IMG/VR virus record: IMGVR_UViG_3300045988_175595
Location: 101,597 to 165,596 of that record
DNA length: 64,000 nt
Reading direction: 5' to 3' (one strand)
Source: a virus
The position numbers were made by a program, and so were the translations under genes. Positions 7,261-63,875 of the stretch are shown piece after piece. The notes beneath the pieces were generated by a model. It was not told the DNA's origin and searched no databases. It was given only the letters and a program-made list of their open reading frames with translations. Each line of letters begins with the position of its first letter. Within the stretch, counting starts at the first letter, position 1.

Positions 7261-8382
7261 TTAATTTGCTTTAAAATTATAAATTGGTTTAATTATTTTT
7301 ACAATATCAACTGTATCTTTAATATTGTTTATAATTTCTTCTGAAGGTTTATATGCACCTTTAGATTCGTCTATTGTTGCATTATTACAAGTTGAACTAA
7401 AAATATTATTTTCTTTCATTGCATTAATATCATCTTCAACTTTTAACAATTCTTTAGCTTTAGAACGGCTCAAGATTCTACCTGCACCATGAGGAGCAGA
7501 ATAATTCCAATCTGGATTTCCTTTTCCTATAGCTATTATGCTACCATCTATTCTATTTAATGGTATTATTACTTTTTCTCCTTTTTTTGCAGATATAGCT
7601 CCTTTTCTTAATATTTTATTAGCTAAATCTATATAGTTATGAATTGTTGTAAAATGACTTTCTTCTTCCCAATTCATTTTATTGATTATAGTATCTGCAA
7701 TAGCCTCTCTATTAAATTGAGCATAAGCTTGTGCTATACCCATATCGTAAAGATAATTTTTTAAATTATCTCCTTGTAAATAGCATAAGGCTTTTGGAAC
7801 TTTATTTATTTTCGGATCATCATTTATTTCTTTAATAGCTAAATTTTGATAATATTCAGCTATTTGTTTTCCTAAACAACTTGATCCAGAATGTATAACT
7901 AAATATATATTATTTTCTGAATCTTTGTTCATTTCTATAAAATGATTTCCTCTACCTAATACACCTATAGATTTTTTTGCTATGTCTATATTTATATTAG
8001 ATTTACATTTTAATAGAGATAAATCTACATATTTATTATATGGATGTTCTTTATCTCTTATATTGGTTCCGTTAGGGATATATTGTTTTATACATTCATC
8101 TACTTTCTGTAAATCAATGTCCTCTAGTTTTTGTTTTAATTTTACTACAAACATTCCACAACCTATATCACTTCCAACTAAATTAGGAGTAACTTTGTCA
8201 TCGATTGTCATTGTAGTTCCTATTGTACACCCCGCGCCTGCATGTGTGTCTGGCATAATCTTTATAACAGAATTTTTATATGCCTCTTGATTACACAATT
8301 CAATAATTTGTGATATTGCCTCTTGGTCTATATCAAATGTATAAACTAAAGCAGTATTATATTGTCCTTGTAAAGGTATCAT
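7261..8382 (-). CDS. rtcB: RNA 3'-phosphate/5'-OH ligase RtcB (compact 373-aa form)
   Basis: Motifs MPDTHAGAGCTIGTT, GRGNHFIE and HSGS match the RtcB metal- and GTP-binding signatures. Confidence 0.8.
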   Translation of the reverse strand: MIPLQGQYNTALVYTFDIDQEAISQIIELCNQEAYKNSVIKIMPDTHAGAGCTIGTTMTIDDKVTPNLVGSDIGCGMFVVKLKQKLEDIDLQKVDECIKQYIPNGTNIRDKEHPYNKYVDLSLLKCKSNINIDIAKKSIGVLGRGNHFIEMNKDSENNIYLVIHSGSSCLGKQIAEYYQNLAIKEINDDPKINKVPKALCYLQGDNLKNYLYDMGIAQAYAQFNREAIADTIINKMNWEEESHFTTIHNYIDLANKILRKGAISAKKGEKVIIPLNRIDGSIIAIGKGNPDWNYSAPHGAGRILSRSKAKELLKVEDDINAMKENNIFSSTCNNATIDESKGAYKPSEEIINNIKDTVDIVKIIKPIYNFKAN

Positions 8383-10139: not shown

Positions 10140-10292
10140 TGAAAACTTATAAAAAGTTATAAAATAAACTTTTACGTTTCATTCTTGATTCAACGTGACC
10201 TATTTCACTATATAAGCTACTCTAGTTTGGTATATCACTCCACAAGCGTAAATTCCCGACTAACTATCGGTACATATCTATAATTGCTTTCA
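10140..10292 (-). ncRNA. Candidate TnpB-associated omega RNA (reRNA) / IS right end
   Basis: This segment is locally GC-richer than its surroundings (ttgattcaacgtgacctatttcactatataagctactctagtttggtatatcactccacaagcgtaaattcccgactaactatcggtac). It is placed where TnpB guide RNAs are normally encoded. Confidence 0.4.
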
Positions 10293-11465
10293 TTATGCTA
10301 CATTATAGATTGCTGAATCTTTTAAATTTAATGATGCTTGATAATCTCTATCTATTATATTTCCACATTCTGGACAAATATAAATTCTATCACTAAGTTT
10401 CAAATCTTTTTTAATAGAACCACATTCATGACATAACTTGCTTGAAGGGAAATATCTATCAACAATTCTTAATTCTATATTATTCCATTTACACTTATAT
10501 TCTAATTGTCTGCGAAATTCATATAATTTCTGTTGTTGAATAGCTTTAGATATATGCTTATTTTTTATCATACCACTTATATTTAAATCTTCTATTGTAA
10601 TAAACATTGGTTTTCTGTTTACTATTTCAGAAGTTACTTCATGTAAATAATTATCTCTAATGTTAGTTAGTCTATGATTTAATTTTAAAAGTCTTTTTTC
10701 ACTTTTTACAATATTACTTGTTTTGCAGTAACTATCTCCTTTCTTATTTATTAGATATTTTTTAGATATCTTACGTTGTAACCTACGTTTTCTTTTCTCT
10801 AATTTTCTTATCCTTTGTGTTTTATTTATATTATTATAAATATTTCCATCAGAACATATTGCTAAATCTTTAACACCTAAATCTATTCCTATTCCTTCAT
10901 TTGTAGGTATTTCTATATTATCTTCATATTCAATACCAACACATATAAACCAATTAACTCCGTCATAAACCACATGAGGATTTATATATTTACAATTAGT
11001 AGGTATTTTATTCTTTTCTGATAATTTAACCCAATTTAATTTAGCTTTATTTTTCTTTTTACTTGTTGCAATATTCTCTAATTTAACATGAGTATCAGTA
11101 AATTTAATTTTTATATTATCTACATAAAAACTAGGTCTGTCTAACTTTTTTGATTTAAATTTAGGAAATTTAGATTGTCCTTTAAAGAATCTTTTATAAC
11201 TCATACAAGCATCTTTAATAGCCTGTTTAGTTACATTATTACTTATAGAATATAGCCACTTATATTCTTCTTGTTTTTTTAATTTAGTAAATTCTTTTCT
11301 TAACTCATAGTCAGAAATAAATTTACCACCATTTTTATAATTTTCTTGTTGTCTAGCTATTGTCCAATTATAAGCAAATCTTTTTACTCCACAAAACTGA
11401 AACATCTTTGTCTGTTGTTTATTATTAGGCTTTAACTTAATCTTTAATGTTTTTATCATCCTCAA
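10293..11465 (-). CDS. tnpB: TnpB (IS605 OrfB-family RuvC-like nuclease with C-terminal zinc finger)
   Basis: GIDLGVKDLAICSDG RuvC-I-like motif and CHECGS...CPECG zinc finger. Confidence 0.75.
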   Translation of the reverse strand: MRMIKTLKIKLKPNNKQQTKMFQFCGVKRFAYNWTIARQQENYKNGGKFISDYELRKEFTKLKKQEEYKWLYSISNNVTKQAIKDACMSYKRFFKGQSKFPKFKSKKLDRPSFYVDNIKIKFTDTHVKLENIATSKKKNKAKLNWVKLSEKNKIPTNCKYINPHVVYDGVNWFICVGIEYEDNIEIPTNEGIGIDLGVKDLAICSDGNIYNNINKTQRIRKLEKRKRRLQRKISKKYLINKKGDSYCKTSNIVKSEKRLLKLNHRLTNIRDNYLHEVTSEIVNRKPMFITIEDLNISGMIKNKHISKAIQQQKLYEFRRQLEYKCKWNNIELRIVDRYFPSSKLCHECGSIKKDLKLSDRIYICPECGNIIDRDYQASLNLKDSAIYNVA

Positions 11466-15709: not shown

Positions 15710-16189
15710 TTAGCCTACAGAAACTGATCCTTCTTCAACTTCTTTTACATTTATATCACTATTTAAAATGTTAAAAGTTGCATTAAATCCATCTACTAGA
15801 ATTTGTCCTTCTACAGATATAGGTTTTTCATCTAATTTTTCAGTATTATGTCTTATTATATTATAAATATGACTATACTTTTCTCCTAATGTTCTTGCTA
15901 CTTCAGCAATACTTCTATATCTATGTATTTCTGGATTTTTTAAATCAATTATTGGAACACCTCTTTTTATTCTGCGTTCTTTTGTTGTAATCGATTTCTT
16001 TTTACCTGTTTCAATTTCTTTTGGTTTTACTTTATTATGTATTTTGTTTTCCTTCTTTTTTAAATCTTTCCTTAATCTTTTTTGTTTTAATTTTTTAGAA
16101 TTCTTCTTTGTCATTTTTTGTTCATACCTCCATAATAAAAAATAAGCTATTAATAGCTTATAATAAGTATTTTTATTTAAAAATGACAA
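15710..16189 (-). CDS. Lys-rich putative DNA-binding protein (HTH-like C-terminal region)
   Basis: A KKxK-rich N-terminal region and GVPIIDLKNPEIHRYRSIAEVARTLGEKYSHIYNII resembling a NUMOD/sigma-region-4-like HTH. The true start may be an internal Met. Confidence 0.35.
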   Translation of the reverse strand: MSFLNKNTYYKLLIAYFLLWRYEQKMTKKNSKKLKQKRLRKDLKKKENKIHNKVKPKEIETGKKKSITTKERRIKRGVPIIDLKNPEIHRYRSIAEVARTLGEKYSHIYNIIRHNTEKLDEKPISVEGQILVDGFNATFNILNSDINVKEVEEGSVSVG

Positions 16190-16207: not shown

Positions 16208-16642
16208 TTATAAATCTTTTACTAATATAGTTTCATTTAATGTTTCTATTTTTTCTATTCCAGCATTAATAATTAATCTACTACATATAGTACAAGGTTT
16301 AGGATTTAATATTTCTTCATTTTTTTCTTTATCAAATCCATATAAATATAATGTACTTCCTATCATATCTTTTCTTGATGCAGATATTATTGCATTCATT
16401 TCTGCATGAACAGAAGCACAAAGTTCATATTTTTCGCCACTTGGTACATTAAGTCTTTGTCTTTCACATTGACCTATATCATTACAATTTATTCTACCTC
16501 GAGGCGAACCTGTATAACCTGTTGCTATTATTTCATCATTTTTTACAATAATAGCTCCATAATTTCTTCTTAAACATGTTCCTCTTTGAGAAACTGCTTT
16601 TGCTATATTTAAATAATATTCTTTTTTATCGATTCTACTCAT
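16208..16642 (-). CDS. dCMP deaminase (cytidine/deoxycytidylate deaminase zinc-binding family)
   Basis: HAEMNAI and PCTICSRLI zinc-ligand motifs. Confidence 0.75.
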   Translation of the reverse strand: MSRIDKKEYYLNIAKAVSQRGTCLRRNYGAIIVKNDEIIATGYTGSPRGRINCNDIGQCERQRLNVPSGEKYELCASVHAEMNAIISASRKDMIGSTLYLYGFDKEKNEEILNPKPCTICSRLIINAGIEKIETLNETILVKDL

Positions 16643-43099: not shown

Positions 43100-43169
43100 A
43101 TAAATAAGCTATTAATAAGTAGCTTAGATCTATCTACTATTAATAGCTTATGTTATTATTTATAGAGTT

Positions 43170-52220: not shown

Positions 52221-52430
52221 TTCTCTTTTTCTCCTTTCTTCTTACTTTATTATGTATATATTTATTTTACTACTAGTAATACTATTCTTCTTTATTTTTA
52301 CTATTCTTTATTGTTTTCTTTATTCTATCTTATTCTCTCCTTTTAATAGCTTATTTCTTCTTCTTTTACCTTTCTTTTCTTCTTTTTATGTTTATTTTTT
52401 TAAAACGGAGTCTTAAACTATAAATAATTA

Positions 52431-52560
52431 AATAAATATAATATATATTATTTTAACCAAATAAATATAATATATATTATTTTAACCAGCTAAATATAAT
52501 ATATATTATTTTATATTATTTAAACCAGCTAAATATAATATATATTATTTAAACCAGCTT
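52431..52560. repeat. Four tandem direct repeats (iteron-like) of about 29-38 bp: TAAATATAATATATATTATTT(TA)AACCAGC
   Basis: Read directly at 52431-52460, 52461-52490, 52491-52528 and 52529-52558. Confidence 0.7.
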
Positions 52561-52974
52561 ACGCTCGAAAAAATTATTACTTTTTCTTATAAATATTAAA
52601 ACGGGCTCTAGCGACCTATTTAATAATAAAAATAGGCACTCGTGTATACCCACACAATAAGCCATAAATAATATCATACAATTCAAAATAGATGTATTTA
52701 AATAGATAATTAAATATAAAGCGATTTAAGAGAGATAAAAGATATATATGTATAGGGATACAAGGGACGAAATAAAAAACGTATATAATAAAAACTAACG
52801 TTAAAAAAATACTAACGCTAAAAAAGAGATAAGGGCTCGCTAACGCTCGCCCTCGTATGTAAGTTAGTCCGATACTATTTAGGCACTCGTGTATAAACGT
52901 GTCCATAAAAAGACAAGTATTAACTAAACTTAGGAATTAGTATTGAATTGTAAATAGAAAGTTTAAACAAATAA

Positions 52975-53007
52975 CCCGTAATAAGATAGCGATAGCTTTT
53001 TGTTTTT
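52975..53007. promoter_or_regulatory. Copy of promoter-like motif CGTAAT(C/T)AAGATA-N5-8-TTTTTGTT (minus-strand AACAAAAA..TATCTTGATTACG)
   Basis: Plus-strand sequence cccgtaataagatagcgatagctttttgttttt. Confidence 0.35.
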
Positions 53008-53981
53008 AAAAAAAGTTTATATAATAAATAGATAGTTTAGTTTAATACTTGTAAAAATATTAAATAATCTATCTATAATATAAACTTATATTTTTTGTAT
53101 GGAATAAGAGATATATAAAAATAAATATCTAGAATAAATTATATATATCTCTTATGTGGGGTTAATAATGATTAAACACTTTTGCGATGCCCAACTATGT
53201 TCTCTTCGTCTTTTCTGAGATTAAGGGCCCAACCTTATTATATTTTTGGTTATTATATATAATAAGGATTTTTAATTGATTTTAGCATTTTTGACACTCT
53301 TGCCTTATCAATTTATTATTTAAATGTAAGGTTTATTAAATTATTTTTATTCTTTACCTAGGATAGAATAATAATTTAATAATTTCTATCTTGTTTTATT
53401 AACAAATTATTAATCAGATAGATATAAATTAATAATTGTTAAGTGAGTCAACATTCACATCATCTTATACATTTATCACTTACAAATTATATAAGAATTT
53501 AGGAAAAGTATTTATTGGCTACTTCCTTGACCTTTTTAATTTTATTTTTGTGTTATTAAGGTGTTATTAAGCGAAACTGTACATTATATAAAAAGAAAAA
53601 CATTAAAAAGCCAATAAAAAACAAAAGAAAAAATTAGGCAACTAAATTAATTTAAAATTACTATTATGATTTCCTTTGCCTTTCTTAATTTATTTTTTAT
53701 TTAATTTAATATTTTTTTTGGAACTATACAACTAGCTCCTTAAATCATATAAGCTGTTAAAAGTGGTATAGAAACTTACTCTTAATAGCTTATATGATAT
53801 TAGCAACCAATTGATAATAAAAAATAATATATTTATATATAATACTTTAAACCCTCAAGGCAAATCAGTCCTTTTTATATTGAGCTTATATATAATCATT
53901 ATACTAGCTATCTATCGCATAATGAATCACTCCTCTCTTAATTATCAATTAATTTATTTTTGAAAGTGATTTAATAGAAAA

Positions 53982-54797
53982 CTAATTATTTATATGGATA
54001 CCAGAACCACCCATTTTATTTCTTTGATGATTAACTTTTCTTGTTATAGTATTTTTAGCATTCAATATTTGATTGCTTGCCTTTAACAATTCTGGGTCTG
54101 TTGTCATAGCAGTTTTTGTTTCTTCTACTGCTTGGACACCAGAATTTAATAATGATGCACCTATTTTAATAGCTGAATGGAACAATCCTTTACCTAAATT
54201 CATTGCTCCTTTTCCTGCTATTTTAGCTACAGGAGTAACTAACTCTGTTGCAATATAATTAGCAGAGTCAGTAGTTGTTTTAACAGCTCTATCTGTAACA
54301 TCAACTGATTTATTAATTATATTTTCAGCTGTATACTTTTTCTGGATTTTTGCATATTCCATAGGAGTAACATTTTTAATATTTAATTCTATGATATCAG
54401 ATTTTAGATTTTTACTAATCTTTGTTTCTGTTATACCTATAGAAGATAACCAATTATCAAACTTTTGCGCATTCAAAGTCTGATAAAAATCTAAAGTTAA
54501 ATCATAATTATCTACTTCTTGTAGTTTTTGTTCTCTTTTTATTCTTTTTAAGTTATCTTCTTCTTGTTGTATTCCTTCTACTGTTTGTTGAAAGAATTCT
54601 TGTTTTTGTGCTGAAGCAACTACTTTTTCTTCTGGAGTAGATGTATCAATTACTTCTATTTTTCCTTGTTTCTCTAATATATTTAATGTAGCTATAACAA
54701 GGTTAATATCTTCAAGTGGCAAACTTAATTTTTCTGCTAATTCTGGAACAGAGTAAGTTTTTTGCTGATATTTTATCATATCATTAAAATTAATCAT
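53982..54797 (-). CDS. Hypothetical protein
   Basis: 271-aa ORF. Confidence 0.4.
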   Translation of the reverse strand: MINFNDMIKYQQKTYSVPELAEKLSLPLEDINLVIATLNILEKQGKIEVIDTSTPEEKVVASAQKQEFFQQTVEGIQQEEDNLKRIKREQKLQEVDNYDLTLDFYQTLNAQKFDNWLSSIGITETKISKNLKSDIIELNIKNVTPMEYAKIQKKYTAENIINKSVDVTDRAVKTTTDSANYIATELVTPVAKIAGKGAMNLGKGLFHSAIKIGASLLNSGVQAVEETKTAMTTDPELLKASNQILNAKNTITRKVNHQRNKMGGSGIHINN

Positions 54798-54799
54798 TA

Positions 54800-55027
54800 T
54801 TAAACTGCCTCCTTATTCCTTTCCTCTTCAATTTCTTTTGATGCTTTTTCAGCTGTTAACATAGCGTCTTTAATGCCTTCAACTAATTGTGGCAAATCCT
54901 TAACTATTTCCTTTTGTGCTTGATGAAGTTCTTTTATTTCTGCAGGATTAAAAGTTGCTCCTATTACTATATTTTCAAGCTTAACTTCATTGATTTCTAT
55001 TTTTCCTAAATTGATATTAAATTTCAT
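54800..55027 (-). CDS. Hypothetical small protein
   Basis: 75-aa ORF. Confidence 0.35.
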   Translation of the reverse strand: MKFNINLGKIEINEVKLENIVIGATFNPAEIKELHQAQKEIVKDLPQLVEGIKDAMLTAEKASKEIEEERNKEAV

Positions 55028-55049
55028 GTTTTATTCCTCTTTTCTTTAA

Positions 55050-55517
55050 TTAATTTTTTGCTGGGGCTAACATTAAACTATTAACTCCAATTCTGGCTAA
55101 TTTATCTGTATATTTATTCATTTCTTCATCTTTAGATAATAATCCTTTTTGATGAGAAATTATATTATGCATTCTAAATCTGCCAGCTATTTTATTACAT
55201 AATGGTTCTATTTTGTCCCATAAATCTCGATTACTCTTTCTTTCTGAATAACCAATTACTCCTGAGACTAATGATTCATTATCACAATATATATCAAATT
55301 TTACACTTGATTTATATTTTGATATTATTAATAAAACTTGATAAAAAGCCTCCAATTCTGCTCTTATTGCTGATTGTGGCCCTTTTCTTAATTTTCCGTT
55401 GGCTTGTTGTTCAATATTATATTCTTTATCACATATAATATATCCCCACCCTCCAACTAAGGTTTTGTCTTTCATCAATTTGCAAGCTCCGTCTGTGTAT
55501 ACTTTAAGCTTTTTCAT
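55050..55517 (-). CDS. rnhA: Ribonuclease HI
   Basis: VYTDGAC (catalytic D), ELEAFYQVL (catalytic E) and IYCDNESL (catalytic D) in RNase H order. Confidence 0.65.
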   Translation of the reverse strand: MKKLKVYTDGACKLMKDKTLVGGWGYIICDKEYNIEQQANGKLRKGPQSAIRAELEAFYQVLLIISKYKSSVKFDIYCDNESLVSGVIGYSERKSNRDLWDKIEPLCNKIAGRFRMHNIISHQKGLLSKDEEMNKYTDKLARIGVNSLMLAPAKN

Positions 55518-55692
55518 ATGGATGTTTTTCTCCTAATATTATTAAGTTTCTTGCTTTAAATCCAAACTTCCTTTGAAAAAAATACCTAGCTTGCTTTTCT
55601 GTTTTTGCAAAGAAGTTTTCATAAGTAAATATTTCATTTACTACTCCCACAACAGTATATTCGTTAAGGGTACAATCCATATCTACAATCAT
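55504..55692 (-). CDS. Hypothetical small protein
   Basis: 62-aa ORF. Confidence 0.3.
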   Translation of the reverse strand: MIVDMDCTLNEYTVVGVVNEIFTYENFFAKTEKQARYFFQRKFGFKARNLIILGEKHPYEKA

Positions 55693-55934
55693 ATAGATTA
55701 ACCTACTTTCTTTTTGTTCATTTGCTGTTCTATATATTTCTTTCCTTGTGCCTTAATTTTCCCATTTGATTTTAGAAACATTTCTGGCACAAATATTTCT
55801 TTTGCTCCTCTCGTAATTATGATTCCTCCATTTACTTTTTTGAACTTTTCTTTCATTTCTTTATTTCCCCCTACTTATTATTTTTTTTGTTATTAGAGAC
55901 TACTATAATTAAACAGTAGTCTCTTTTTTTTATG

Positions 55935-56477
55935 CTAATAAATAGCACGAGTTCCACTAACACTAGCAATATTACTAGAAATACTTTCAGAATATCTCTT
56001 CTGAACTTCTGTCCAACATGCTGATGAGTATGCGTCATTTTGCCTTGTATATTCACTAACTTTTATTAGCTTATTTGCGTCTGCTTTTGTTTCTTCAGAG
56101 ATTTTACATGTCATTATATCTCTAAGGACATAATCATCTCCTTTTTCTTTCCATAATTCATTCCATTTTTTTAACAATTTCATATCTGTTTCTGATACTG
56201 GTTGACCTTTACTATTAAGACCAGTCTTTAACCAGAACTTATAACCTCCGTTATTTAAGAACTGATATGTGTTGCTATTAATGAATATAGGCACCACATT
56301 AGTTAATTCTGTAGTGTCAGCCTTTTCAATATAAGTGATAAGATTTCTCAAAGCTGTATTGTCCTCTGTGTCTCCTTTTGGTGTGAACTCTAACCACATT
56401 GATGAGTGATTTGTCACATCAAACTCGATTCCAACAGAGAACGAACCCTTACTTGCAATATAAATTCTTTTTTCCAT
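55935..56477 (-). CDS. Hypothetical protein
   Basis: 180-aa ORF. Confidence 0.4.
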   Translation of the reverse strand: MEKRIYIASKGSFSVGIEFDVTNHSSMWLEFTPKGDTEDNTALRNLITYIEKADTTELTNVVPIFINSNTYQFLNNGGYKFWLKTGLNSKGQPVSETDMKLLKKWNELWKEKGDDYVLRDIMTCKISEETKADANKLIKVSEYTRQNDAYSSACWTEVQKRYSESISSNIASVSGTRAIY

Positions 56478-56609
56478 AATATTTACCTTCTTTCTACCCG
56501 TTTCGGGATTTTTGAATTCCTGTTTCGACTACCAATATTTTCTTAACATAGTCATCATCAGTGGGGCTGTTTCTCCCCAGACAGGATAAATAAAAAACTA
56601 CACTAAACT

Positions 56610-56636
56610 CGTAATCAAGATAGCGTAGCTTTTTGT
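56610..56636. promoter_or_regulatory. Copy of the CGTAATCAAGATA...TTTTTGTT promoter-like motif, about 130 nt upstream of the 55935-56477 start
   Basis: Plus-strand sequence cgtaatcaagatagcgtagctttttgtt. The minus strand gives TTGATT-N17-TTTTAT. Confidence 0.4.
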
Positions 56637-56814
56637 TACCTATTATATTGTATCAAAATAATCATTAAAAGGTGTTGAGAACCATGGACAACTTTTGTCA
56701 GAACAATAATGATTCTCAACATTTCCTTCTTCTGTATATTCTATTTCTATTGGTTTACCACATATAGGACACTTTTTGTTATTTGATATTTTTATATCCA
56801 TTTTTATTGTCCTC

Positions 56815-57228
56815 CTATATTACTTGATTATAATATGATTTCTTTTCTTCTTCTGTTTGAAGTTCTGATGGACTAAATCCACATTCTTTACAGAACTCTT
56901 CTAATTTATTCTTTTTGTTTACAACCATTGTCCCTCCACATGATGGACATAATTTTGTTGTAATTTGATATGGATTATCTATCATACTATCTTGTATATC
57001 TGTTATCATTTTGACAACATTACAAGCTTTAAGAGTACCTTGTATAGATATTCTTTTTGTACTGATGTTATAATAAATACCATTCTTTACTTTAGTAGTA
57101 TTATCGGCACTCATATGTACGTCAGTACTTTTGTAGATAAAGAAATCCACCTCACTATTATCAATACAATCAACTTGATAACCTCTTTTTTGTAGATTTC
57201 TTTTTATTCTTTCTAACATTTCAATCAT
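56815..57228 (-). CDS. Zinc-ribbon protein
   Basis: CPSCGG...CKECG near the C-terminus. Confidence 0.4.
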   Translation of the reverse strand: MIEMLERIKRNLQKRGYQVDCIDNSEVDFFIYKSTDVHMSADNTTKVKNGIYYNISTKRISIQGTLKACNVVKMITDIQDSMIDNPYQITTKLCPSCGGTMVVNKKNKLEEFCKECGFSPSELQTEEEKKSYYNQVI

Positions 57229-57257
57229 CTCCTAAATATTTATTTTTACATATAACA

Positions 57258-57287
57258 CGTAATTAAGATAACTACGTTTTTTTGTTT
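57258..57287. promoter_or_regulatory. Copy of the promoter-like motif, 30 nt upstream of the 56815-57228 start
   Basis: Plus-strand sequence cgtaattaagataactacgtttttttgttt. Confidence 0.4.
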
Positions 57288-57387
57288 ATATAGCTTTTAA
57301 TAGCTTATTTTATTAATCGTTTTTTTACATAGTAGAACTTTTTGTCTCTATATAAAATATTTTTTGTTTTATTATTTTTACACAACT

Positions 57388-57416
57388 CGTAATTAAGATA
57401 ACTTAAGTTTTTTGTT
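57388..57416. promoter_or_regulatory. Copy of the promoter-like motif
   Basis: Plus-strand sequence cgtaattaagataacttaagttttttgtt. Confidence 0.4.
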
Positions 57417-57455
57417 GTGGGTTTATATCAAAAATTAAAAAATTTATACTTAATC

Positions 57456-57490
57456 CGTAATCAAGATACCCGTAGGGTTTTTGTGTGAAG
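57456..57490. promoter_or_regulatory. Copy of the promoter-like motif
   Basis: Plus-strand sequence ccgtaatcaagatacccgtagggtttttgtgtg. The minus strand gives TTGATT-N17-TTTTTA. Confidence 0.4.
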
Positions 57491-57604
57491 GTTTCAAATA
57501 TCCTTCAGTTTTTTCAAAAAGTCTAGGGTAACTTTTTGTTTGTTTCCGAAGGATATTTTTCTCTTGTCCCCGAAGGGGGCTGAACATACTTCTCTAGCTC
57601 CATC

Positions 57605-58798
57605 TCACTCTACTATATATGTGTGTCCATCCTCTCTATTAAATATTTTATCTTCTTTATCTATAACAATAACCATGAAATTATTATCTACTTGATCCAT
57701 AAAGAAGTTTCTAAAATATCGTTTAGTACTATCTATTCCACATTCTCCATAAGTCTTTTTACCTGCTGGATGTGGTTGATTACTTATATCTATACATTTC
57801 AATGTCTCTCCTTTCTCATTTTCTAATTTTATCTTTCCTATCTCAAATGTTACATATATATGATTTTCTTTTCTTAATTTATATTTATTATTTGAAGATA
57901 TAGTACATTCTTTATTCTTATCTTCAGTTCTTATTTCTTGCACTGGTTTATTATTTTCTTTTTCTTCTTTCTTTTCTTTAAATGATATTATCTTAGCTAC
58001 TGCTACCTCTTTGCTACTATTAGTTATTAAAGAATGTACTCTTTCCCAAGCTTCTTTAACACAAAAGCTTAATCTATCTCTATAAGCTGTTTTCTTAAAT
58101 AATTCATCTTCTGCTTCATATTTTCTTCTTAATTTATGAGCTAATTTAAATACATAACTTCTTATCTTATTATTATTTAATTTTATATCTTGTTTTTTAG
58201 TTTCATCTTTTGCTACTGCTATTTCATCTTCAGCATTATCTACTATTTTTGTTTCTTTAGGTGGAGTAATATCATTATTAAATTTATCACTCATATCACT
58301 TTCATTTGGATTTACTAATTTAACATTAGCTTCTTCTACTAATTTTAAAGTAGATTGGTGTTTAATACTATTTTTACTTAAACGTTTTCCATTAAGCATG
58401 AATGTAAATACAACAGCATAGTTATTCATAATATATTTAACACATTTAAATTTTCTTATAATTTTTTCATCTGTATTTAGCATATGAGTATATATTTTTT
58501 GCGCCGCTATTTTTAGTTCTTTATTGTATACTTCCATATAAGGTAAAGCTTTGCCATTAAAATAAAAGTCTATTATTTCATTTCCATTGTTTAATTTTAA
58601 TAATATAGTTTTACCATTTGTATACATAGTCCAGTTTTCATAACTTGAAAGATGAACTGAACCTCCATCTAAATATCCTTTTTCTTCATTAAAGAATCTT
58701 AATATATTTAATACTTGTTCTTCTCCTATTAATTCTCTTGCTTCTTTTAATATAACTCCTATTGGTAATTGTTTGTTCATAATAAATCTTCCTTTCAT
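57605..58798 (-). CDS. Hypothetical protein
   Basis: 397-aa ORF. Confidence 0.4.
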   Translation of the reverse strand: MKGRFIMNKQLPIGVILKEARELIGEEQVLNILRFFNEEKGYLDGGSVHLSSYENWTMYTNGKTILLKLNNGNEIIDFYFNGKALPYMEVYNKELKIAAQKIYTHMLNTDEKIIRKFKCVKYIMNNYAVVFTFMLNGKRLSKNSIKHQSTLKLVEEANVKLVNPNESDMSDKFNNDITPPKETKIVDNAEDEIAVAKDETKKQDIKLNNNKIRSYVFKLAHKLRRKYEAEDELFKKTAYRDRLSFCVKEAWERVHSLITNSSKEVAVAKIISFKEKKEEKENNKPVQEIRTEDKNKECTISSNNKYKLRKENHIYVTFEIGKIKLENEKGETLKCIDISNQPHPAGKKTYGECGIDSTKRYFRNFFMDQVDNNFMVIVIDKEDKIFNREDGHTYIVE

Positions 58799-58865
58799 AT
58801 TTAAAAATTAAAATAATAAAAAAGAGAGAGTACGAAACTCTCTCTTATATAAATCATAAATAGAA

Positions 58866-61800
58866 TTATTTAGGCATTACTATTCCATCCATTAATATTC
58901 TATTTAATTCATCTTGTTTACTTTCTTCTTTAGTTTCTTCTACTTTTAAAGTATTTTGAGGCATAGCAATACCATCTAATAAAATATTACTATTTGGTGT
59001 TTCTTGATCTTTATCTATAGCAACTTCTCTTTCTACAGATGTAGGCATAACAATACCATCCATTAATATATTATTAATATTATTATTGTTAACTGGAGTA
59101 GAAGATAGAGAAATATTATTTGTAGGCATATTTATTCCATCCATTAATATACTATTTATCTTTTCTTTGTTTTCTTTAATAACTGATGCTTGTTCTGCTG
59201 CTATATCATATAGTCCATCAGCGTTAAGATACATACAAGTTGATTTTTCAGAAACAAAGAAATTAATTGTTGCTGTTTTAAAATCTATACTATCTAAAAC
59301 GTTTGCAACATAGCTATTAATAGCTAGATTACACACTTTAAATTCTGCACCTGTAGAAGTTACTGCCATTATTACATTGTAATCAGATTTACCAGTGTAA
59401 ATATTTTGATCTGCTTTAATATATTTATATTCTACTATTGTAGCATTTCTTAATTCTTGAGAAACACCTTGTTTAGTTATTGGAAGATAAACTCCTTTAT
59501 TATAATTAGAAGTTGAAACTTTTCTTTCAGTTTCTACAAAGTATTTACCATTGCCATCTGTAATAACAACACCATCATCAAAAGTAGCTTTCTTATTATC
59601 AAAAGTAATAAATTCATTATCTTCAGTTATTCCATGTCCTTTATTAGCTGATACATGTTTACCTAATAAATCAGGAAGATAAACAACTTTCTTATTATCA
59701 TCTATAGCACAAATGATTCTTTCAGCGGCAACTATATTTAATCCTTCTGATTTTAAGAATGCAACTAATTCTTTTTCAAATATAGTTATTAAATTAGTAT
59801 TAACTGTAGCACAAGATTCAATATCTTTTTCATAGCTATCAATACTATAGCATACAATAGCTCTTCCTATTTCTTCTGGAGTTAATACAGTTTCAGCTGA
59901 TAATAATGATAATTCAGCATAGTTTCTACAAACTTCTAAGATAGTTGTTTTTAAATATTTCTTAGTTGTTATCTCTTGTTCTTCATCTTTATCTTTTATA
60001 TTGATACAAGTTAATTCTTTAAGAGTTTCGTTTATATTTATATTCATTCTCATAATAGTTCTTAATAACTTATCAATATTAAATTTAGAAGTTTTATCTT
60101 TATCTCCTACGTTTATGTCATCTTCTTGAGTTTTTATCTTTTGTCTTAATTCATTTGATTCTGCACTTTTTATTTGAATTTCTAATTCTTTTGCTACCAT
60201 AACAATAGCTAAGTTCGCATAATCAACTAATTCATTTCTTATTGCTCCTAATGGATCAACAATACAAGGAATCTTTTCTTGATTATATTCAAACATAAAT
60301 TCTTCTTCTGTCATTTCATCAGTTACTAAGAATTCTCCAGTTGCAGAAGCAGCTAATTTATTTTTTAATAATGGTAAATTAAAGAAATTAGTTTTAGTGT
60401 ATTCTCCTTCTATTATTTCATTTAGTATTTCTACATTTTCTTCAAATAACATATCATTTGTTTCTTTCTCTTCATAAATATCTAATGGAGCTGTTAACAT
60501 GTTCTTATATGAACCACAAGCTCTGATTACATCTTTTAAGTTAAACATATCAACAACCTTGTACATGTTTTTAGCTGCATCAATAGAAGTTTCTCCTGGA
60601 TATCTATTACAATATAAAGTATCTTCTAAGAAAGCTATAGTTTCTTGTAATGTTCCATTTCCTTCTTTGTATCTTAACATAACTTCTTCACACATTCTCT
60701 TACTTAAAGTAACTTGAGTTCTAGTTTGTCCATTTCTTAATCTATAAGTTTTATATGATTTATCTGTTTTTACTGGAGAGATATAATCTTTAGTGTGTTC
60801 AACTCCAAAGAACATAGATATTGTTTTAACTATTTTATCTTTAACATTATCTGAAACATTTGGAGATATTAATGCTAAATATAATAATGCATTATTATAG
60901 AATCCAGTAGATATAAAACCTATAGGAGCAACTGGATTTAAGAAGTAATCTAATATTAATCTACCAGTATTTTCAAATGTTATACTATAGTTTCCATCAA
61001 AATCTTTAACACAAGAACTTTGACTGTTTTGAGCATCAACTTTCATATTATTTTTACCTATATTAGATTTCTTACTAATACCAAAAGCGGCTTTCTTCTT
61101 ATTAACAGCTGACTCTTCTTTCTTTATTACAGATTTATTACATCTACCAAATGAAGTTGCAAAACCAGATAAGAATTTAGCAATACTTAAAGAGTTTAAT
61201 GATTCATAGTGACTAATATCTCCTTCATCTGGATCGTTTTCATCTAATGATCTATCAACAATAGTACCAAAATCAGTAATTTGAGATAATATATCAACTA
61301 CTTGTTTATCTTTAAATATTTGCATAGAGTCTATATCAAAGTCAGCTCCATCATGTTTTTCCATGAAATAGTGACAAGCTGGAATTAATATAAATCCATC
61401 CATATCTAATACATAATCAGTTAAGAACTTCTTAGCATTATTAGTTAAATTCATCCTTTGTATTCTATCTAATAATTCTTCTGTACCTACAACTTTAAAA
61501 GTAGTAACAGCTTTATGACCACTGATTGGATGTCTTGCTGCTGATACTTTTTCTATTTCTCCTGCAACTAATGAATGAGAATAACATTCACCATCATCTA
61601 ATAATCTAGTACCAAATATAGGAGCTGGATCTGCTTGAATAACAGTATAGTCTGCATCAACATCTACTCTTAACATATTTAATAAGTTACCAGTAGAAGT
61701 AACTATATTATTAAGAATTGATTTAACAACTCCAGGGAAATAAGCTAATATTTCTTTTGGTGATAATTTATATAACCAAGTTGCAGTTTGTTGATCATTA

Positions 61801-63875
61801 TTGTATCTAATAAATTTACTAGTATCAACATCTACTGATTCTATATTTGAACCATCGTCTGATAATTTAATATAGATACCTAATTCTTCGAATTTAGCCA
61901 TTATTGTTTTCTTAGCTCTTTCTAATAATAATTCTGTAGCTTGTTCTTCGTTTTGAATTAACATCATAAAGTTAATAACCATATTTAATCCTGTATTTGC
62001 TTCATGTGCTTTCTTTAAGCATACTAAATCAAATTCATTATCATGTTCTACTAACTTCATACAGTTTTCATCAAATACACCATCTAATTTACTCATAGCA
62101 TCATCAAGTTCTTCTTTAGATAATTCATTAATATCTAAATCTTCACCGTCTATTACTAATTTAGCTACAGATGCATTATTTTCTAATAAAGCTAAAGCTA
62201 ATGTTTCTAAGTTCTTTCTCTTTTGTATTTGAGATGAGTTCTTATTTCCGCCTCCTCTTGCTTGTAAACAAATACCTAATAATTCTTTATTAGATACTGA
62301 TAAGTTACATTGTTGTAAATATTCTAATACCATTTCAACAGATATGAAACAAGTACCATCTTTTGTATTGCTACAATCAATAACATTTGCATTTTCATTT
62401 TGAGTATAAGGAGTAAAGTAATCGTTTTTATTGTATCCAGCTTTATGAGCTATATTATTAAATACAATATAGTTTCTTACTCTACCTATCTTTTTAGATG
62501 GAGTAGAAACCATCATAACTCTTGTCATAGCTTTGAATAATTTAACTAATGAATTATATTTAGCAAATTCAACAGTTCCATCTTCATTCTTTTTAGTTAC
62601 AAATGACATAGAAAATGCATTGTTTGAAGCTTTGTCTAATAATTCAATTCTTCTATCAACATTTGTTAATTCTGTATCTCCATGTTTAAAAGTATTAACA
62701 GCTGCTAATGAAATAGAACCTGTTCTTAATCCAGATGGAGTTACTCCTAATAATTGGTATTCAATTGCATATTCACCTTCTCTTACATAATTCTTTATTT
62801 CTGATCTTGTACAGAATACTGATCTAGATAATCCAGATTTCATTCTTATAATGAATATTCTAGTATCTTTTTGATGACAACCAATCATTATCTTGAATAA
62901 GTTTATTAATTTCTTCTTATTGTTTCTTAATTGTGTTCCCATAGATATACTACAAATTTCTTCTGTATATTTACCTTCAAGAGTCATAGCTTTATCAGCC
63001 ATTACACCTTCTTTTGTTTCACAAGCTCTTAATAATTCTGATTCTTGAAGAGGTTCAACCATTACTGCAACTCTTAATTCTTCTGTATTATAATCAGTCT
63101 TATAAGCTTCTAATTCTATTCTGTTCTTTAATACAACTTCCATTTCTTTAGTGAACATTTCAAAAGCTTTTTGTTTTATATAACTCTTAGTCTTTGAAAC
63201 AGTCATGAAATCAGCTATTAATTTTGCTTTAGCTTGTGAGTTTGGTAAATATTGAATTAAGAAGTTAAATTCTTTTATATCTAAGTCTGCTACTTTCTTA
63301 TTAGCTAATACTTGAGCTTTTAATGAATTAACAGCAAACTTTCTGATGTTTTTATTTCTCTTAGCTACTTCTTCTGCTGCAAAATGTTTCTTATCAAAAG
63401 CATCTTTAACTACTTTACTCATTGGAGCATATAAATCATAGTTTATTTCTTCATATACTGATTCCATGATTTCATCTTTAATTGTTTCTTTAGTTTCTTT
63501 TATCTCTTCTACTTTTACTCCTTTGTTGTAAGCTGCTACAGCTTTCTTAATATTTTTTACTACTATTTCTGCTTCTGTTATTGTATCTTTATTTTCATCT
63601 AAGATAGTTGGTATTATAACTTCATCTCTTATTACTTTTGTGATGTGTTTTGATCCTTCAGCTAATTCATTTACTCTTCTTACTACTACTTCCATATTTA
63701 ATCCCCCGTTTATTACTGTATTATTCATTTTTACTCCACCTTCCATTACTTCATTGTTTACTACTGTGTTATTGTTATTATTCATTGTATTTTCCCCCTT
63801 TAAAGTTGTGTTTACCATTTCATTGTTTTTTGTGTTCATCATTTTCTTTTCCTCCAATTTTTCATATATATACAA
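58866..63875 (-). CDS. Giant (1669 aa) protein with a beta-prime-like catalytic loop; candidate single-subunit multisubunit-type RNA polymerase (YonO-like or crAss-like two-barrel RNAP), with C-terminal tandem ILMDGIxMP repeats
   Basis: The motif HDGADFDIDSMQ (protein residues about 840-850, DNA about 61330-61365) resembles the universally conserved beta-prime NADFDGDQM Mg-binding loop and the DxDxD triad of crAss-like and YonO RNAPs. There are four C-terminal repeats of (N/R)IL(M/L)DGI(N/V/A)MP(T/Q/K). Confidence 0.45.
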   Translation of the reverse strand: MYIYEKLEEKKMMNTKNNEMVNTTLKGENTMNNNNNTVVNNEVMEGGVKMNNTVINGGLNMEVVVRRVNELAEGSKHITKVIRDEVIIPTILDENKDTITEAEIVVKNIKKAVAAYNKGVKVEEIKETKETIKDEIMESVYEEINYDLYAPMSKVVKDAFDKKHFAAEEVAKRNKNIRKFAVNSLKAQVLANKKVADLDIKEFNFLIQYLPNSQAKAKLIADFMTVSKTKSYIKQKAFEMFTKEMEVVLKNRIELEAYKTDYNTEELRVAVMVEPLQESELLRACETKEGVMADKAMTLEGKYTEEICSISMGTQLRNNKKKLINLFKIMIGCHQKDTRIFIIRMKSGLSRSVFCTRSEIKNYVREGEYAIEYQLLGVTPSGLRTGSISLAAVNTFKHGDTELTNVDRRIELLDKASNNAFSMSFVTKKNEDGTVEFAKYNSLVKLFKAMTRVMMVSTPSKKIGRVRNYIVFNNIAHKAGYNKNDYFTPYTQNENANVIDCSNTKDGTCFISVEMVLEYLQQCNLSVSNKELLGICLQARGGGNKNSSQIQKRKNLETLALALLENNASVAKLVIDGEDLDINELSKEELDDAMSKLDGVFDENCMKLVEHDNEFDLVCLKKAHEANTGLNMVINFMMLIQNEEQATELLLERAKKTIMAKFEELGIYIKLSDDGSNIESVDVDTSKFIRYNNDQQTATWLYKLSPKEILAYFPGVVKSILNNIVTSTGNLLNMLRVDVDADYTVIQADPAPIFGTRLLDDGECYSHSLVAGEIEKVSAARHPISGHKAVTTFKVVGTEELLDRIQRMNLTNNAKKFLTDYVLDMDGFILIPACHYFMEKHDGADFDIDSMQIFKDKQVVDILSQITDFGTIVDRSLDENDPDEGDISHYESLNSLSIAKFLSGFATSFGRCNKSVIKKEESAVNKKKAAFGISKKSNIGKNNMKVDAQNSQSSCVKDFDGNYSITFENTGRLILDYFLNPVAPIGFISTGFYNNALLYLALISPNVSDNVKDKIVKTISMFFGVEHTKDYISPVKTDKSYKTYRLRNGQTRTQVTLSKRMCEEVMLRYKEGNGTLQETIAFLEDTLYCNRYPGETSIDAAKNMYKVVDMFNLKDVIRACGSYKNMLTAPLDIYEEKETNDMLFEENVEILNEIIEGEYTKTNFFNLPLLKNKLAASATGEFLVTDEMTEEEFMFEYNQEKIPCIVDPLGAIRNELVDYANLAIVMVAKELEIQIKSAESNELRQKIKTQEDDINVGDKDKTSKFNIDKLLRTIMRMNININETLKELTCINIKDKDEEQEITTKKYLKTTILEVCRNYAELSLLSAETVLTPEEIGRAIVCYSIDSYEKDIESCATVNTNLITIFEKELVAFLKSEGLNIVAAERIICAIDDNKKVVYLPDLLGKHVSANKGHGITEDNEFITFDNKKATFDDGVVITDGNGKYFVETERKVSTSNYNKGVYLPITKQGVSQELRNATIVEYKYIKADQNIYTGKSDYNVIMAVTSTGAEFKVCNLAINSYVANVLDSIDFKTATINFFVSEKSTCMYLNADGLYDIAAEQASVIKENKEKINSILMDGINMPTNNISLSSTPVNNNNINNILMDGIVMPTSVEREVAIDKDQETPNSNILLDGIAMPQNTLKVEETKEESKQDELNRILMDGIVMPK

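Follow-up and report, generated by a model that had tools for sequence, protein, structure and literature searches.

A hairpin-containing repeat beside a two-barrel RNA polymerase gene as a candidate promoter class of an uncultivated jumbo phage lineage

What is a repeated, AT-rich element in the genome of an uncultivated phage for, and which RNA polymerase reads it? The element recurs in a stretch of 64,000 nucleotides (the window) from IMG/VR virus record IMGVR_UViG_3300045988_175595 (positions 101,597 to 165,596), where its copies lie close to a gene for a 1,669-amino-acid (aa) protein. An initial annotation had described the copies as promoter-like, with an A-tract followed by a −35-like TTGATT or TTAATT, a 17-bp spacer, and a weak A/T hexamer. 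A real, oriented, intergenic, promoter-like motif family is borne out by the copies, their position, and their orientation, and the unit proves to be a longer composite built around a small hairpin. These repeats may well constitute a phage-group-specific, partly structure-dependent class of promoters for the small genes near the polymerase gene, read by phage-encoded machinery, a reading that we hold with middling confidence.

A JGI protein encoded on a 245,223-bp contig has the same sequence as the 1,669-aa protein, and the window therefore belongs to an uncultivated jumbo phage. Its G+C content ranges from 21 to 32% (mean, ~25%), its minus strand holds essentially every gene, and it encodes ~20 tRNA genes.

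All five copies that had been placed at plus-strand starts 52975, 56610, 57258, 57388, and 57456 were recovered there. Searched as CGTAATNAAGATA-N9-TTTTTG with at most three mismatches, the motif matched four sites against 0.58 expected, and 0 of 100 shuffles reached four; the fifth copy (52977) is a 1-nucleotide (nt) deletion variant, recovered with a gapped regular expression. The 13-mer core by itself, at three mismatches, is at chance level (41 matches versus 39 expected), and it is the longer motif and its exact or near-exact copies that carry the significance. A covariance model (R1), built on copies from related phages and two window copies, scored the five at 30 to 53 bits (E values of 3e-9 to 1e-3) and found no further convincing copy in the 64-kb window, the next match being a degenerate sixth. 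In gene sense, with stem and loop separated by slashes, the copies are as follows:

57520 to 57541, minus strand: remnant, holding only ACAAAAA and an AGT..ACT inverted repeat
57440 to 57486, minus strand: motif copy, ACACAAAA-ACCC/TAC/GGGT-ATCTTGATTACGGATTAAGTATAAAT, 30.4 bits, first full unit of the array (57456 in the initial annotation)
57373 to 57417, minus strand: motif copy, ACAAAA-AAC(T)/TA/(A)GTT-ATCTTAATTACGAGTTGTGTAAAAAT, 32.3 bits (previously 57388)
57304 to 57347, minus strand: degenerate copy, ACAAAA-AGT/TCT/ACT-ATGTAAAA, 22.5 bits, E value of ~0.07 (not previously listed)
57242 to 57285, minus strand: motif copy, ACAAAAA-AAC/GTA/GTT-ATCTTAATTACGTGTTATATGTAAAAAT, 38.3 bits, last unit of the array (previously 57258)
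56594 to 56638, minus strand: motif copy, AACAAAA-AGC/TAC/GCT-ATCTTGATTACGAGTTTAGTGTAGTTTT, 53.1 bits (previously 56610)
52962 to 53005, minus strand: motif copy, ACAAAA-AGC/TATC/GCT-ATCTT-ATTACGGGTTATTTGTTTAAA, 37.4 bits (previously 52975)

All six copies fall outside minus-strand open reading frames (ORFs) of at least 50 aa, although only 20% of the window is free of such ORFs, and all six share the minus-strand orientation of the genes. The 376-bp gap at 57229 to 57604 carries four units and the remnant, spaced ~62 to 70 bp apart. Stacking upstream of the gene at 56815 to 57228 had been described as three copies in 370 bp; the stacking stands, and the count rises to four plus the remnant. 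That remnant accounts for the weaker copy noted near 57520, of which a trace exists, lacking the right half and undetected by the covariance model. In the degenerate copy the right half has decayed and a T-A third pair preserves the stem. When the motif is directly followed by a gene, 8 to 30 nt separate it from the ribosome-binding site, and the last unit of each array stands at a promoter-like distance from such a site. Copy 57242 to 57285 and the AGGAG ribosome-binding site of the gene at 56815 to 57228 are 8 nt apart, and copy 56594 to 56638, 5 nt past the stop of a 52-aa ORF, is directly upstream of a candidate hammerhead ribozyme and the gene at 55935 to 56477. Copy 52962 to 53005 lies within a 1-kb conserved noncoding locus, with no ORF after it.

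Read in gene sense, the unit spans ~45 bases: ACAAAA, a mini-hairpin, TATCTT, 5 or 6 variable bases, ACGNGT, about 4 more, TRTG, and an A/T-rich tail. The hairpin, missed in the initial annotation, has a stem of 3 to 5 bp and a loop of 3 or 4 nt; in every case the 9 to 11 bases from ACAAAA to TATCTT form a small inverted repeat, and in the window the stems are AGC/TAC/GCT, AGC/TATC/GCT, AAC/GTA/GTT, AACT/TA/AGTT, ACCC/TAC/GGGT, and AGT/TCT/ACT. The best-conserved parts are ACAAAA, the covarying mini-hairpin, TATCTT, ACGNGT, and TRTG.

Conservation was judged in related phages, whose loci came from contigs for five members of the polymerase family plus IMG/VR and ENA loci. The 1,669-aa protein has three database relatives (56, 47, and 30% identity), and an exhaustive profile search extended its family to ~35 full-length clusters of 1,350 to 1,700 aa, found in metagenomes only. 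A genome-contig collection yielded no relative and metagenome contigs yielded three distant loci only, and neither the region (by megablast) nor the polymerase core (by tblastn) matched any of 50,697 deposited phage records. When IMG/VR was scanned with CGTAATNAAGATA-N6-10-TTTTTG, 27 contigs had one match each and none was a multicopy locus, a result taken as chance.

Gene order is common to all relatives: the polymerase gene, an intrinsic terminator, a gene for a 350- to 470-aa protein, short GC hairpins (CCCCCTTCGGGG), a gap of 350 to 1,070 bp, a small Zn-ribbon ORF, small genes including RNase H, and a large noncoding locus. In L028, L030, L039, and L041/42 the gap carries 4 to 6 units of the window's motif type, in arrays that always follow the 350- to 470-aa gene located after the polymerase gene. 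The array's last unit in the window (57242 to 57285) has orthologs at L028 9090 to 9134 and L030 15230 to 15272. Single units in relatives occupy sites orthologous to copy 56594 to 56638 (L028 10121 to 10165 and L030 15579 to 15622) and to copy 52962 to 53005 (L028 13435 to 13478, L030 19005 to 19047, and L039 20087 to 20129). Variable bases of the motif differ by phage (ATATTTTRGACGAGT in L028, ATCTTATAACGNGT in L030, and ATCTAATATCRCG in L039 and L041). Three further relatives, with polymerases ~30% identical, have arrays in the same place made of another unit, ACAAAAyTAnGTC..GTCTTTGAATyTTATG:

L031, 7990 to 10310: array of this unit
L033, 15300 to 16400 and 18370 to 18560: arrays of this unit
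L038, 10900 to 12060: array of this unit

The different unit in distant relatives and the phage-specific variable bases indicate that the signal evolves along with the phage lineage, and such drift fits a coevolving phage-encoded reader rather than a fixed host sigma factor.

The copies had been placed upstream of late-region genes. That description is not borne out: the genes served lie beside the polymerase gene and encode RNase H, a 180-aa protein, a Zn-ribbon protein, and small proteins with no assigned function. No structural genes were seen near motif copies in the window; in L030, L039, and L041 the structural genes are on the opposite strand, and the motif model matches nothing strongly there.

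The repeats might also be dispersed sequences of a selfish or neutral kind, spread by tandem duplication or as a miniature mobile element and with no regulatory function at all. The array does resemble tandem duplication of a ~65-bp unit, with degenerate units at 57304 to 57347 and 57520 to 57541. However, phages whose polymerases are only 47 to 56% identical retain single copies at orthologous intergenic sites, and the motif and its stem complementarity are preserved where the flanking intergenic sequence has diverged, so that we regard this origin as extremely improbable.

Evidence that the unit contains a functional structure comes from its stem, compared across 22 copies drawn from four phages. 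All 22 have an outer A-T pair. The middle pair is GC in 15, AU in 3, CG in 3, and UA in 1, so that all four Watson-Crick types occur with zero mismatches, and the inner pair is CG in 20 and UA in 1, with one mismatch. In total, 65 of 66 pair cells (98.5%) are paired, compared to 84% in column shuffles and 0 to 35% when the partner register was slid, and the observed covariation score was reached by 0 of 500 shuffles. Optional fourth stem pairs are complementary too (C-G four times and T-A once), and additional stems seen by eye in L039 and L041 are ATC/GAT, ACT/AGT, and ACC/GGT. The loop measures 3 nt in 20 of the 22 copies, and its sequence varies (TAC, TTC, TAT, GTA, TGC, and TCT). RNAalifold returned the same helix and nothing beyond it. 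By its stem covariation, the hairpin is under selection.

G-U wobble pairs are absent from all 66 pair cells, and the helix is nearly the sole source of G+C in an AT-rich element; together these features somewhat favor a structure formed in DNA over one in RNA. The helix is also very weak, so any function must be protein assisted. With RNAalifold showing nothing past the 3-bp helix, the idea that each repeat unit is a structured small RNA gene was discarded, and in Rfam no family matched the motif, nor did any relative's locus give a match at gathering score.

The helix is compatible with RNA as well, and the copies might instead be an RNA-level signal, either a processing or stability site in minus-strand transcripts or a plus-strand mini-terminator (the hairpin followed by TTTTTGTT) acting against antisense transcription. 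A T-run does follow the hairpin on the plus strand, and the hammerhead in the same intergenic region implies that transcripts there are processed:

56517 to 56587, minus strand: candidate type III hammerhead ribozyme (RF00008), between copy 56594 to 56638 and the gene at 55935 to 56477, in the leader of that gene
L028 ~10160, L030 ~15640, L031 ~8660, L033 ~18225, and L038 ~13715: hammerhead counterparts, found by eye

The window's hammerhead is a full-length RF00008 match of 32.6 bits (E value of 4.7e-4), below the gathering score of 48.5, and no relative's hammerhead reaches that score; the CUGAUGA...GAAAC core with compensatory changes in stems I and II is seen by eye in 5 relatives. L041 has a permuted version (~16250 to 16310), upstream of a motif copy; as the hammerheads of L041 and L031 both precede a motif copy, read-through RNA would contain the motif. 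Against an RNA-level role, the 3-bp stem has essentially no stability as RNA (−0.18 kcal/mol), the 66 pair cells contain no G-U pair, the conserved positions are mostly unpaired and outside the helix, and arrays of 4 to 6 units make little sense as a leader or processing site. The mini-terminator fares no better in a terminator scan, which found only 58846 to 58822 in the region; an intrinsic terminator has a stem of at least 5 bp with G+C pairs, followed by a T-run, and the motif stems are 3 to 5 bp. An RNA signal is thus very improbable.

If the units are promoters, the host polymerase could be what reads them. The −35-like TTGATT or TTAATT of the initial annotation is replaced at orthologous sites by TTTTGG, TTTTAG, or TTTTAA in L028, TTATAA or TTATAG in L030, and TAATAT in L039 and L041, and the A/T hexamer offered as a −10 is not conserved either (candidates include AAAAAT, TAAAAT, AGTTTT, AGTGAG, and TTTAAA). 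A different arrangement puts a −35 of TATCTT or TATATT 17 bp upstream of the hexamer linked to TRTG, of which the T is invariant and the TG is present in ~15 of 22 copies, with a good hexamer after it in some copies only. The units could then be host sigma-A promoters with an UP-like A-tract near −45 to −51, a weak −35, and an extended −10, the ACGNGT perhaps being an activator site. Several copies (w3, w4, and those at L028 9090 and 9652) do have TRTG, one base, and then AAAAAT, TAAAAT, or AAAATT; the A-tract falls at the position of an UP element if the TRTG-linked hexamer is the −10; and the canonical intrinsic terminator after the polymerase gene indicates host-type transcription nearby. 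Stacked strong early promoters for the host polymerase are also common in phages, which counts for a sigma-A identity. However, a lenient sigma-70 scan of the region (9 of 12 matches required) found 48 sites, none of them a motif copy. Few parts of the unit are less conserved than the putative −10 (AGTTTT, AGTGAG, TTTAAA, and TATTAA), and any assumed −10 gives an unconserved −35 that matches TTGACA poorly (TATCTT/TATATT or TTGATT/TTTTGG/TTATAA). Host sigma-A would also leave the covarying hairpin without a reason and would not explain the wholesale change of motif in the more distant relatives; we consider it unlikely. Sigma-54, extracytoplasmic function (ECF) sigma factor, and T4-late types were dropped by eye, there being no consistent GG-N10-GC or TATAAATA element.

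A phage DNA-binding protein could also use the units as binding-site arrays that are not promoters, with the Zn-ribbon gene autoregulated through an operator array or with a replication or packaging protein occupying sites of a kind shared with the nearby noncoding locus. The relevant genes are these:

56815 to 57228, minus strand: gene for a 137-aa protein with a C-terminal Zn ribbon (PF08792), first gene downstream of the array
56643 to 56801, minus strand: gene for a second small Zn-ribbon protein, downstream of the array

The first matches the A2L zinc ribbon family PF08792 at 24.9 bits (cutoff, 22.9), with weaker matches to TFIIB, Lar, and Cas12f-TNB ribbons. In agreement with a binding array, all relatives have a small Zn-ribbon ORF after the array, the spacing is regular at ~62 to 70 bp, and the ACGNGT box is also free-standing, as ACGAGTGCC repeats: the ACGAGTG(CC) sub-box recurs 17 to 38 bp apart in the noncoding locus of all relatives (in the window, 52882 to 52890). 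This solitary recurrence suggests that part of the unit may be the target of a distinct DNA-binding factor. Yet all 22 copies are co-oriented with genes, and several unrelated genes are preceded by a copy with promoter-like spacing to the ribosome-binding site. A dimer that binds duplex DNA would not be expected to leave compensatory changes in a stem, and the asymmetric 45-bp unit would make a long operator. A purely binding-site function therefore seems quite unlikely.

A phage-encoded reader is available next to the array:

58866 to 63875, minus strand: gene for a predicted two-barrel (double-psi beta-barrel) RNA polymerase of 1,669 aa, from AlphaFold 2 (AF2) modeling, Foldseek, and motifs
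58822 to 58846, minus strand: canonical intrinsic terminator directly after the polymerase gene, its position kept in all relatives (by eye)

Direct sequence searches of the 1,669-aa protein against Pfam, PHROG, and PDB, as a single sequence and as a four-sequence profile, returned nothing usable. The protein contains VSAARHPIS...HDGADFDIDSM and CLQARGGGNKNS, and its invariant motifs are VSAARHPIS...MEKHDGxDxDIDxMQ and CxQxRGxxxKxS, which may resemble NRAPTLH...NADFDGDQM of β′ and GRHGNKG of β. Residues D845, D847, and D849 are invariant in four close sequences, as are G582, D584, D586, and D588 (core numbering) in a 40-sequence alignment, and the DxDxD metal-binding motif that two-barrel polymerases carry in the β′-like barrel is present as DFDID, as in crAss gp66. 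An indirect link is provided by the family profile, which reaches P0047, P0053, and P0062 (E values of 1e-13 to 3e-10); against PF05183 (eukaryotic RdRP, QDE-1 family; cutoff, 23.8 bits), P0053 (24.1) and P0062 (38.9) pass and P0047 (23.6) falls below. The 40-sequence profile itself gave a weak alignment of the QDE-1 catalytic motif only (E value of 2.3). An AlphaFold model from the four-sequence alignment was discarded (pLDDT, 43), and one from 40 sequences reached a pLDDT of 88.4 and a pTM of 0.85. The top 22 Foldseek matches of this model in PDB are all RDR2, QDE-1, or crAss phi14:2 gp66 (E values of 1e-10 to 8e-7; probability, 1.0), at TM scores of only 0.28 to 0.39, with multisubunit β′ chains lower in the list. 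On its DFDID motif and the matches of its modeled fold, the 1,669-aa gene product is a two-barrel RNA polymerase, and it is a candidate for the enzyme that reads the motif.

Polymerases of this class are known from other phages. The closest characterized phage homolog is gp66, the virion RNA polymerase of crAss phi14:2, which also has the DFDID motif; it transcribes early genes and, in vitro, denatured DNA. No common upstream motif was detected for its early transcripts, and no gp66 promoter is known. The YonO promoter is likewise undefined, and P23-45 has two two-barrel polymerases, each with a dedicated conserved motif. YonO-like enzymes are known in jumbo phages (PMC7824862), and these were too distant to be reached by tblastn with the polymerase core. 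The neighboring gene in the window belongs to the same class as the single-chain polymerases of P23-45 (gp96/gp64), crAss phi14:2 (gp66), and SPbeta (YonO). As a separate observation, the polymerase gene itself is preceded by a conserved box, CAAGTGCCATGTAAAA(A)TTT, in L031 (~2275) and L033 (~9455).

A close known parallel in design is the early promoter of the phage N4 virion polymerase (vRNAP), in which the variable stem bases matter only for pairing (PMC4496689). Both systems have a short conserved sequence around a hairpin-forming inverted repeat with a 3-nt loop, compensatory stem changes, an A-run beside the hairpin, and a few copies clustered ahead of early-type genes. N4 stems are 5 to 7 bp, GC rich, and able to extrude from supercoiled DNA, whereas the motif's are 3 to 5 bp (2 bp in one L030 copy) and of marginal predicted stability; N4 has a conserved purine-rich loop centered at −11, with contacts at −10G and −8G, whereas the motif's loops vary; and the conserved TATCTT, ACGNGT, and TRTG flanks have no N4 counterpart. 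Moreover, N4 vRNAP, which depends on gyrase and SSB, is a T7-like single-subunit enzyme, unlike the two-barrel polymerase here. The motif thus resembles N4 hairpin promoters in logic and is not a member of that family, from which it departs in stem length, loop conservation, and polymerase type. T7-type promoters share with it a long (>20-bp) phage-specific unit, lineage drift, and few to several copies per region, but they are read as duplex by single-subunit polymerases and have no paired element, and no T7-type single-subunit polymerase was seen in the window. Sigma-70 or sigma-A promoters with an UP element and extended −10 share the upstream A-tract, the TRTG with an A/T-rich hexamer, and proximity to ribosome-binding sites; they differ in that the motif's −35 and −10 are weak and are not its conserved parts, and the covarying hairpin and ACGNGT box are foreign to them.

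A phage-specific promoter class accounts most simply for the features taken together: orientation, intergenic position, distance to ribosome-binding sites, orthologous conservation, lineage drift, the selected mini-hairpin, the mismatch with sigma-70, and the adjacent polymerase, of a class known to require unusual templates. Several points weigh against it. As DNA, the hairpin folds at −0.7 to −2.2 kcal/mol, no better than shuffles, and the RNAalifold folding term is −0.18 kcal/mol. Covariation comes mainly from one pair and the optional extra pairs, the orthologous copies are not independent, and the alignment that was counted had been fitted to the model. TRTG-N-AAAAAT or TRTG-N-TAAAAT in many copies looks like a Gram-positive extended −10, so that the host polymerase may be the reader, and the ACGAGTG sub-box occurs in iteron-like arrays, suggesting for that part a DNA-binding protein and not a polymerase. 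Promoter function, and any transcription start that goes with it, is assigned from position alone; the motif is tied to the polymerase only by adjacency; and its distribution was drawn from 64 kb of a 245-kb genome.

As a promoter class, the repeats would act as a ~45-bp composite transcription initiation signal specific to this phage group, with copies heading the small genes just downstream of the polymerase gene and one copy heading a noncoding stretch. The element would be recognized by the two-barrel polymerase alone or with a phage factor, either a Zn-ribbon protein or one that binds ACGAGTG, in locally melted, very AT-rich DNA where the short hairpin forms, following the logic of the N4 virion polymerase, and the 4 to 6 tandem units ahead of the Zn-ribbon gene would serve as a stack of promoters. 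Direct reading of the hairpin by the two-barrel polymerase is a tentative proposal, possible and no stronger. Equally tentatively, the motif could be the first recognizable promoter class of a crAss-gp66/QDE-1-like two-barrel phage polymerase, read through its structure and convergent with N4 hairpin promoters in an unrelated lineage of polymerases. The small Zn-ribbon proteins may be a transcription factor for this polymerase, and a role for the one at 56815 to 57228 in reading the ACGAGTG part of the unit is speculative.

Other elements surround the array and the copies. Just past the stop of the 397-aa gene (57605 to 58798), before the array, lie two conserved hairpins:

57545 to 57579, minus strand: two short GC hairpins, CCCCCTTCGGGG and TCCTTCGGA

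They are conserved in L028, L030, L038, L039, and L041, neither has a T-run, and they may be a 3′-end or noncanonical termination signal.

The large noncoding locus (52400 to 53980) has the same order in L028, L030, L033, L038, L039, and L041. Along the minus strand it comprises a highly conserved ~50-nt element, GGTTGGGCCCTTAATCTCAGAAAAGACGAAGAGAACATAGTTGGGCATCGCA (53183 to 53234), without an Rfam match; copy 52962 to 53005; the ACGAGTGCC box (52882 to 52890); a GC box, ACGAGGGCGAGCGTTAGCGAGCCC, with a T-run (GC hairpin, 52833 to 52856); AGCGTTAG/AACGTTAG repeats (~52795 to 52820); and five 29-bp tandem repeats (52410 to 52574). Because the motif copy has no ORF and is followed by the ACGAGTGCC box and the GC hairpin with its T-run, it may drive a noncoding RNA; as a whole, the locus may serve as an origin or a packaging site or may encode a noncoding RNA. 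It also contains the region's best sigma-70-like site (53291 to 53319, plus strand; TTGACA-17-TATTAT, 11 of 12 matches), which opposes the direction of all genes and whose TTGACA part (GGCAAGAGTGTCAAA on the gene strand) is kept in L028 and has a weaker counterpart in L030.

The repeats had been called distinct from TTGAGG-type elements elsewhere, and a separate AAACTTGAGGnnACTTAAT family does exist in the window. It has five copies of AAACTTGAGGnnACTTAATnnCTTnAAnTC (8875, 9003, 16686, 16907, and 20054, minus strand), with hairpin-like flanks (e.g., ACTTGAG...CTCAAGT), 15 to 40 nt upstream of ribosome-binding sites. The bare hexamer TTGAGG is not enriched in the window (16 found versus 19 expected), and it is the longer AAACTTGAGGnnACTTAAT unit alone that forms a real family. 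From the earlier proposal of at least two promoter classes, it can be kept that more than one class of regulatory signal is plausible, this second family being real. Across the whole window, 62 matches with at most one mismatch, against 8.8 expected, were counted for the word AAGCTATTAAWA (half of the palindrome AAGCTATTAATAGCTT), on both strands and in coding and intergenic DNA, for example, at 57295 to 57306 (minus strand), 16144 to 16159, and 43106 to 43149; in L030, L031, and L038, ribosome-binding sites have this word immediately ahead of them.

Two further groups of features concern RNA. A RAGATH-18 RNA (10182 to 10246, minus strand; 69 bits, above gathering score) lies immediately downstream of a transposase-family ORF (10293 to 11465, minus strand; 390 aa, PHROG 506), and the pair looks like an insertion sequence-type mobile element within the phage genome. 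The minus strand also carries an array of ~20 tRNAs (621 to 7165), an RtcB-type RNA ligase (7261 to 8382), and a 518-aa RNA-binding protein (PHROG 850; 1536 to 3092); the presence of this RNA repair module alongside self-cleaving ribozymes, whose products have 5′-OH and 2′,3′-cyclic phosphate ends, may be more than coincidence.

If the host polymerase reads these sites, the finding reduces to an unusual array of early promoters. If the phage polymerase does, the arrays would mark the genes that it turns on first, possibly after delivery in the virion. Single-chain two-barrel phage polymerases (YonO, crAss gp66, and relatives) are widespread, and how they find their start sites is largely unexplained. 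In this uncultivated lineage of ~250-kb phages, such a polymerase gene has beside it a conserved candidate signal that includes a structural feature and through which promoter recognition by two-barrel polymerases would become directly testable and the polymerase regulon predictable in metagenomic phage genomes.

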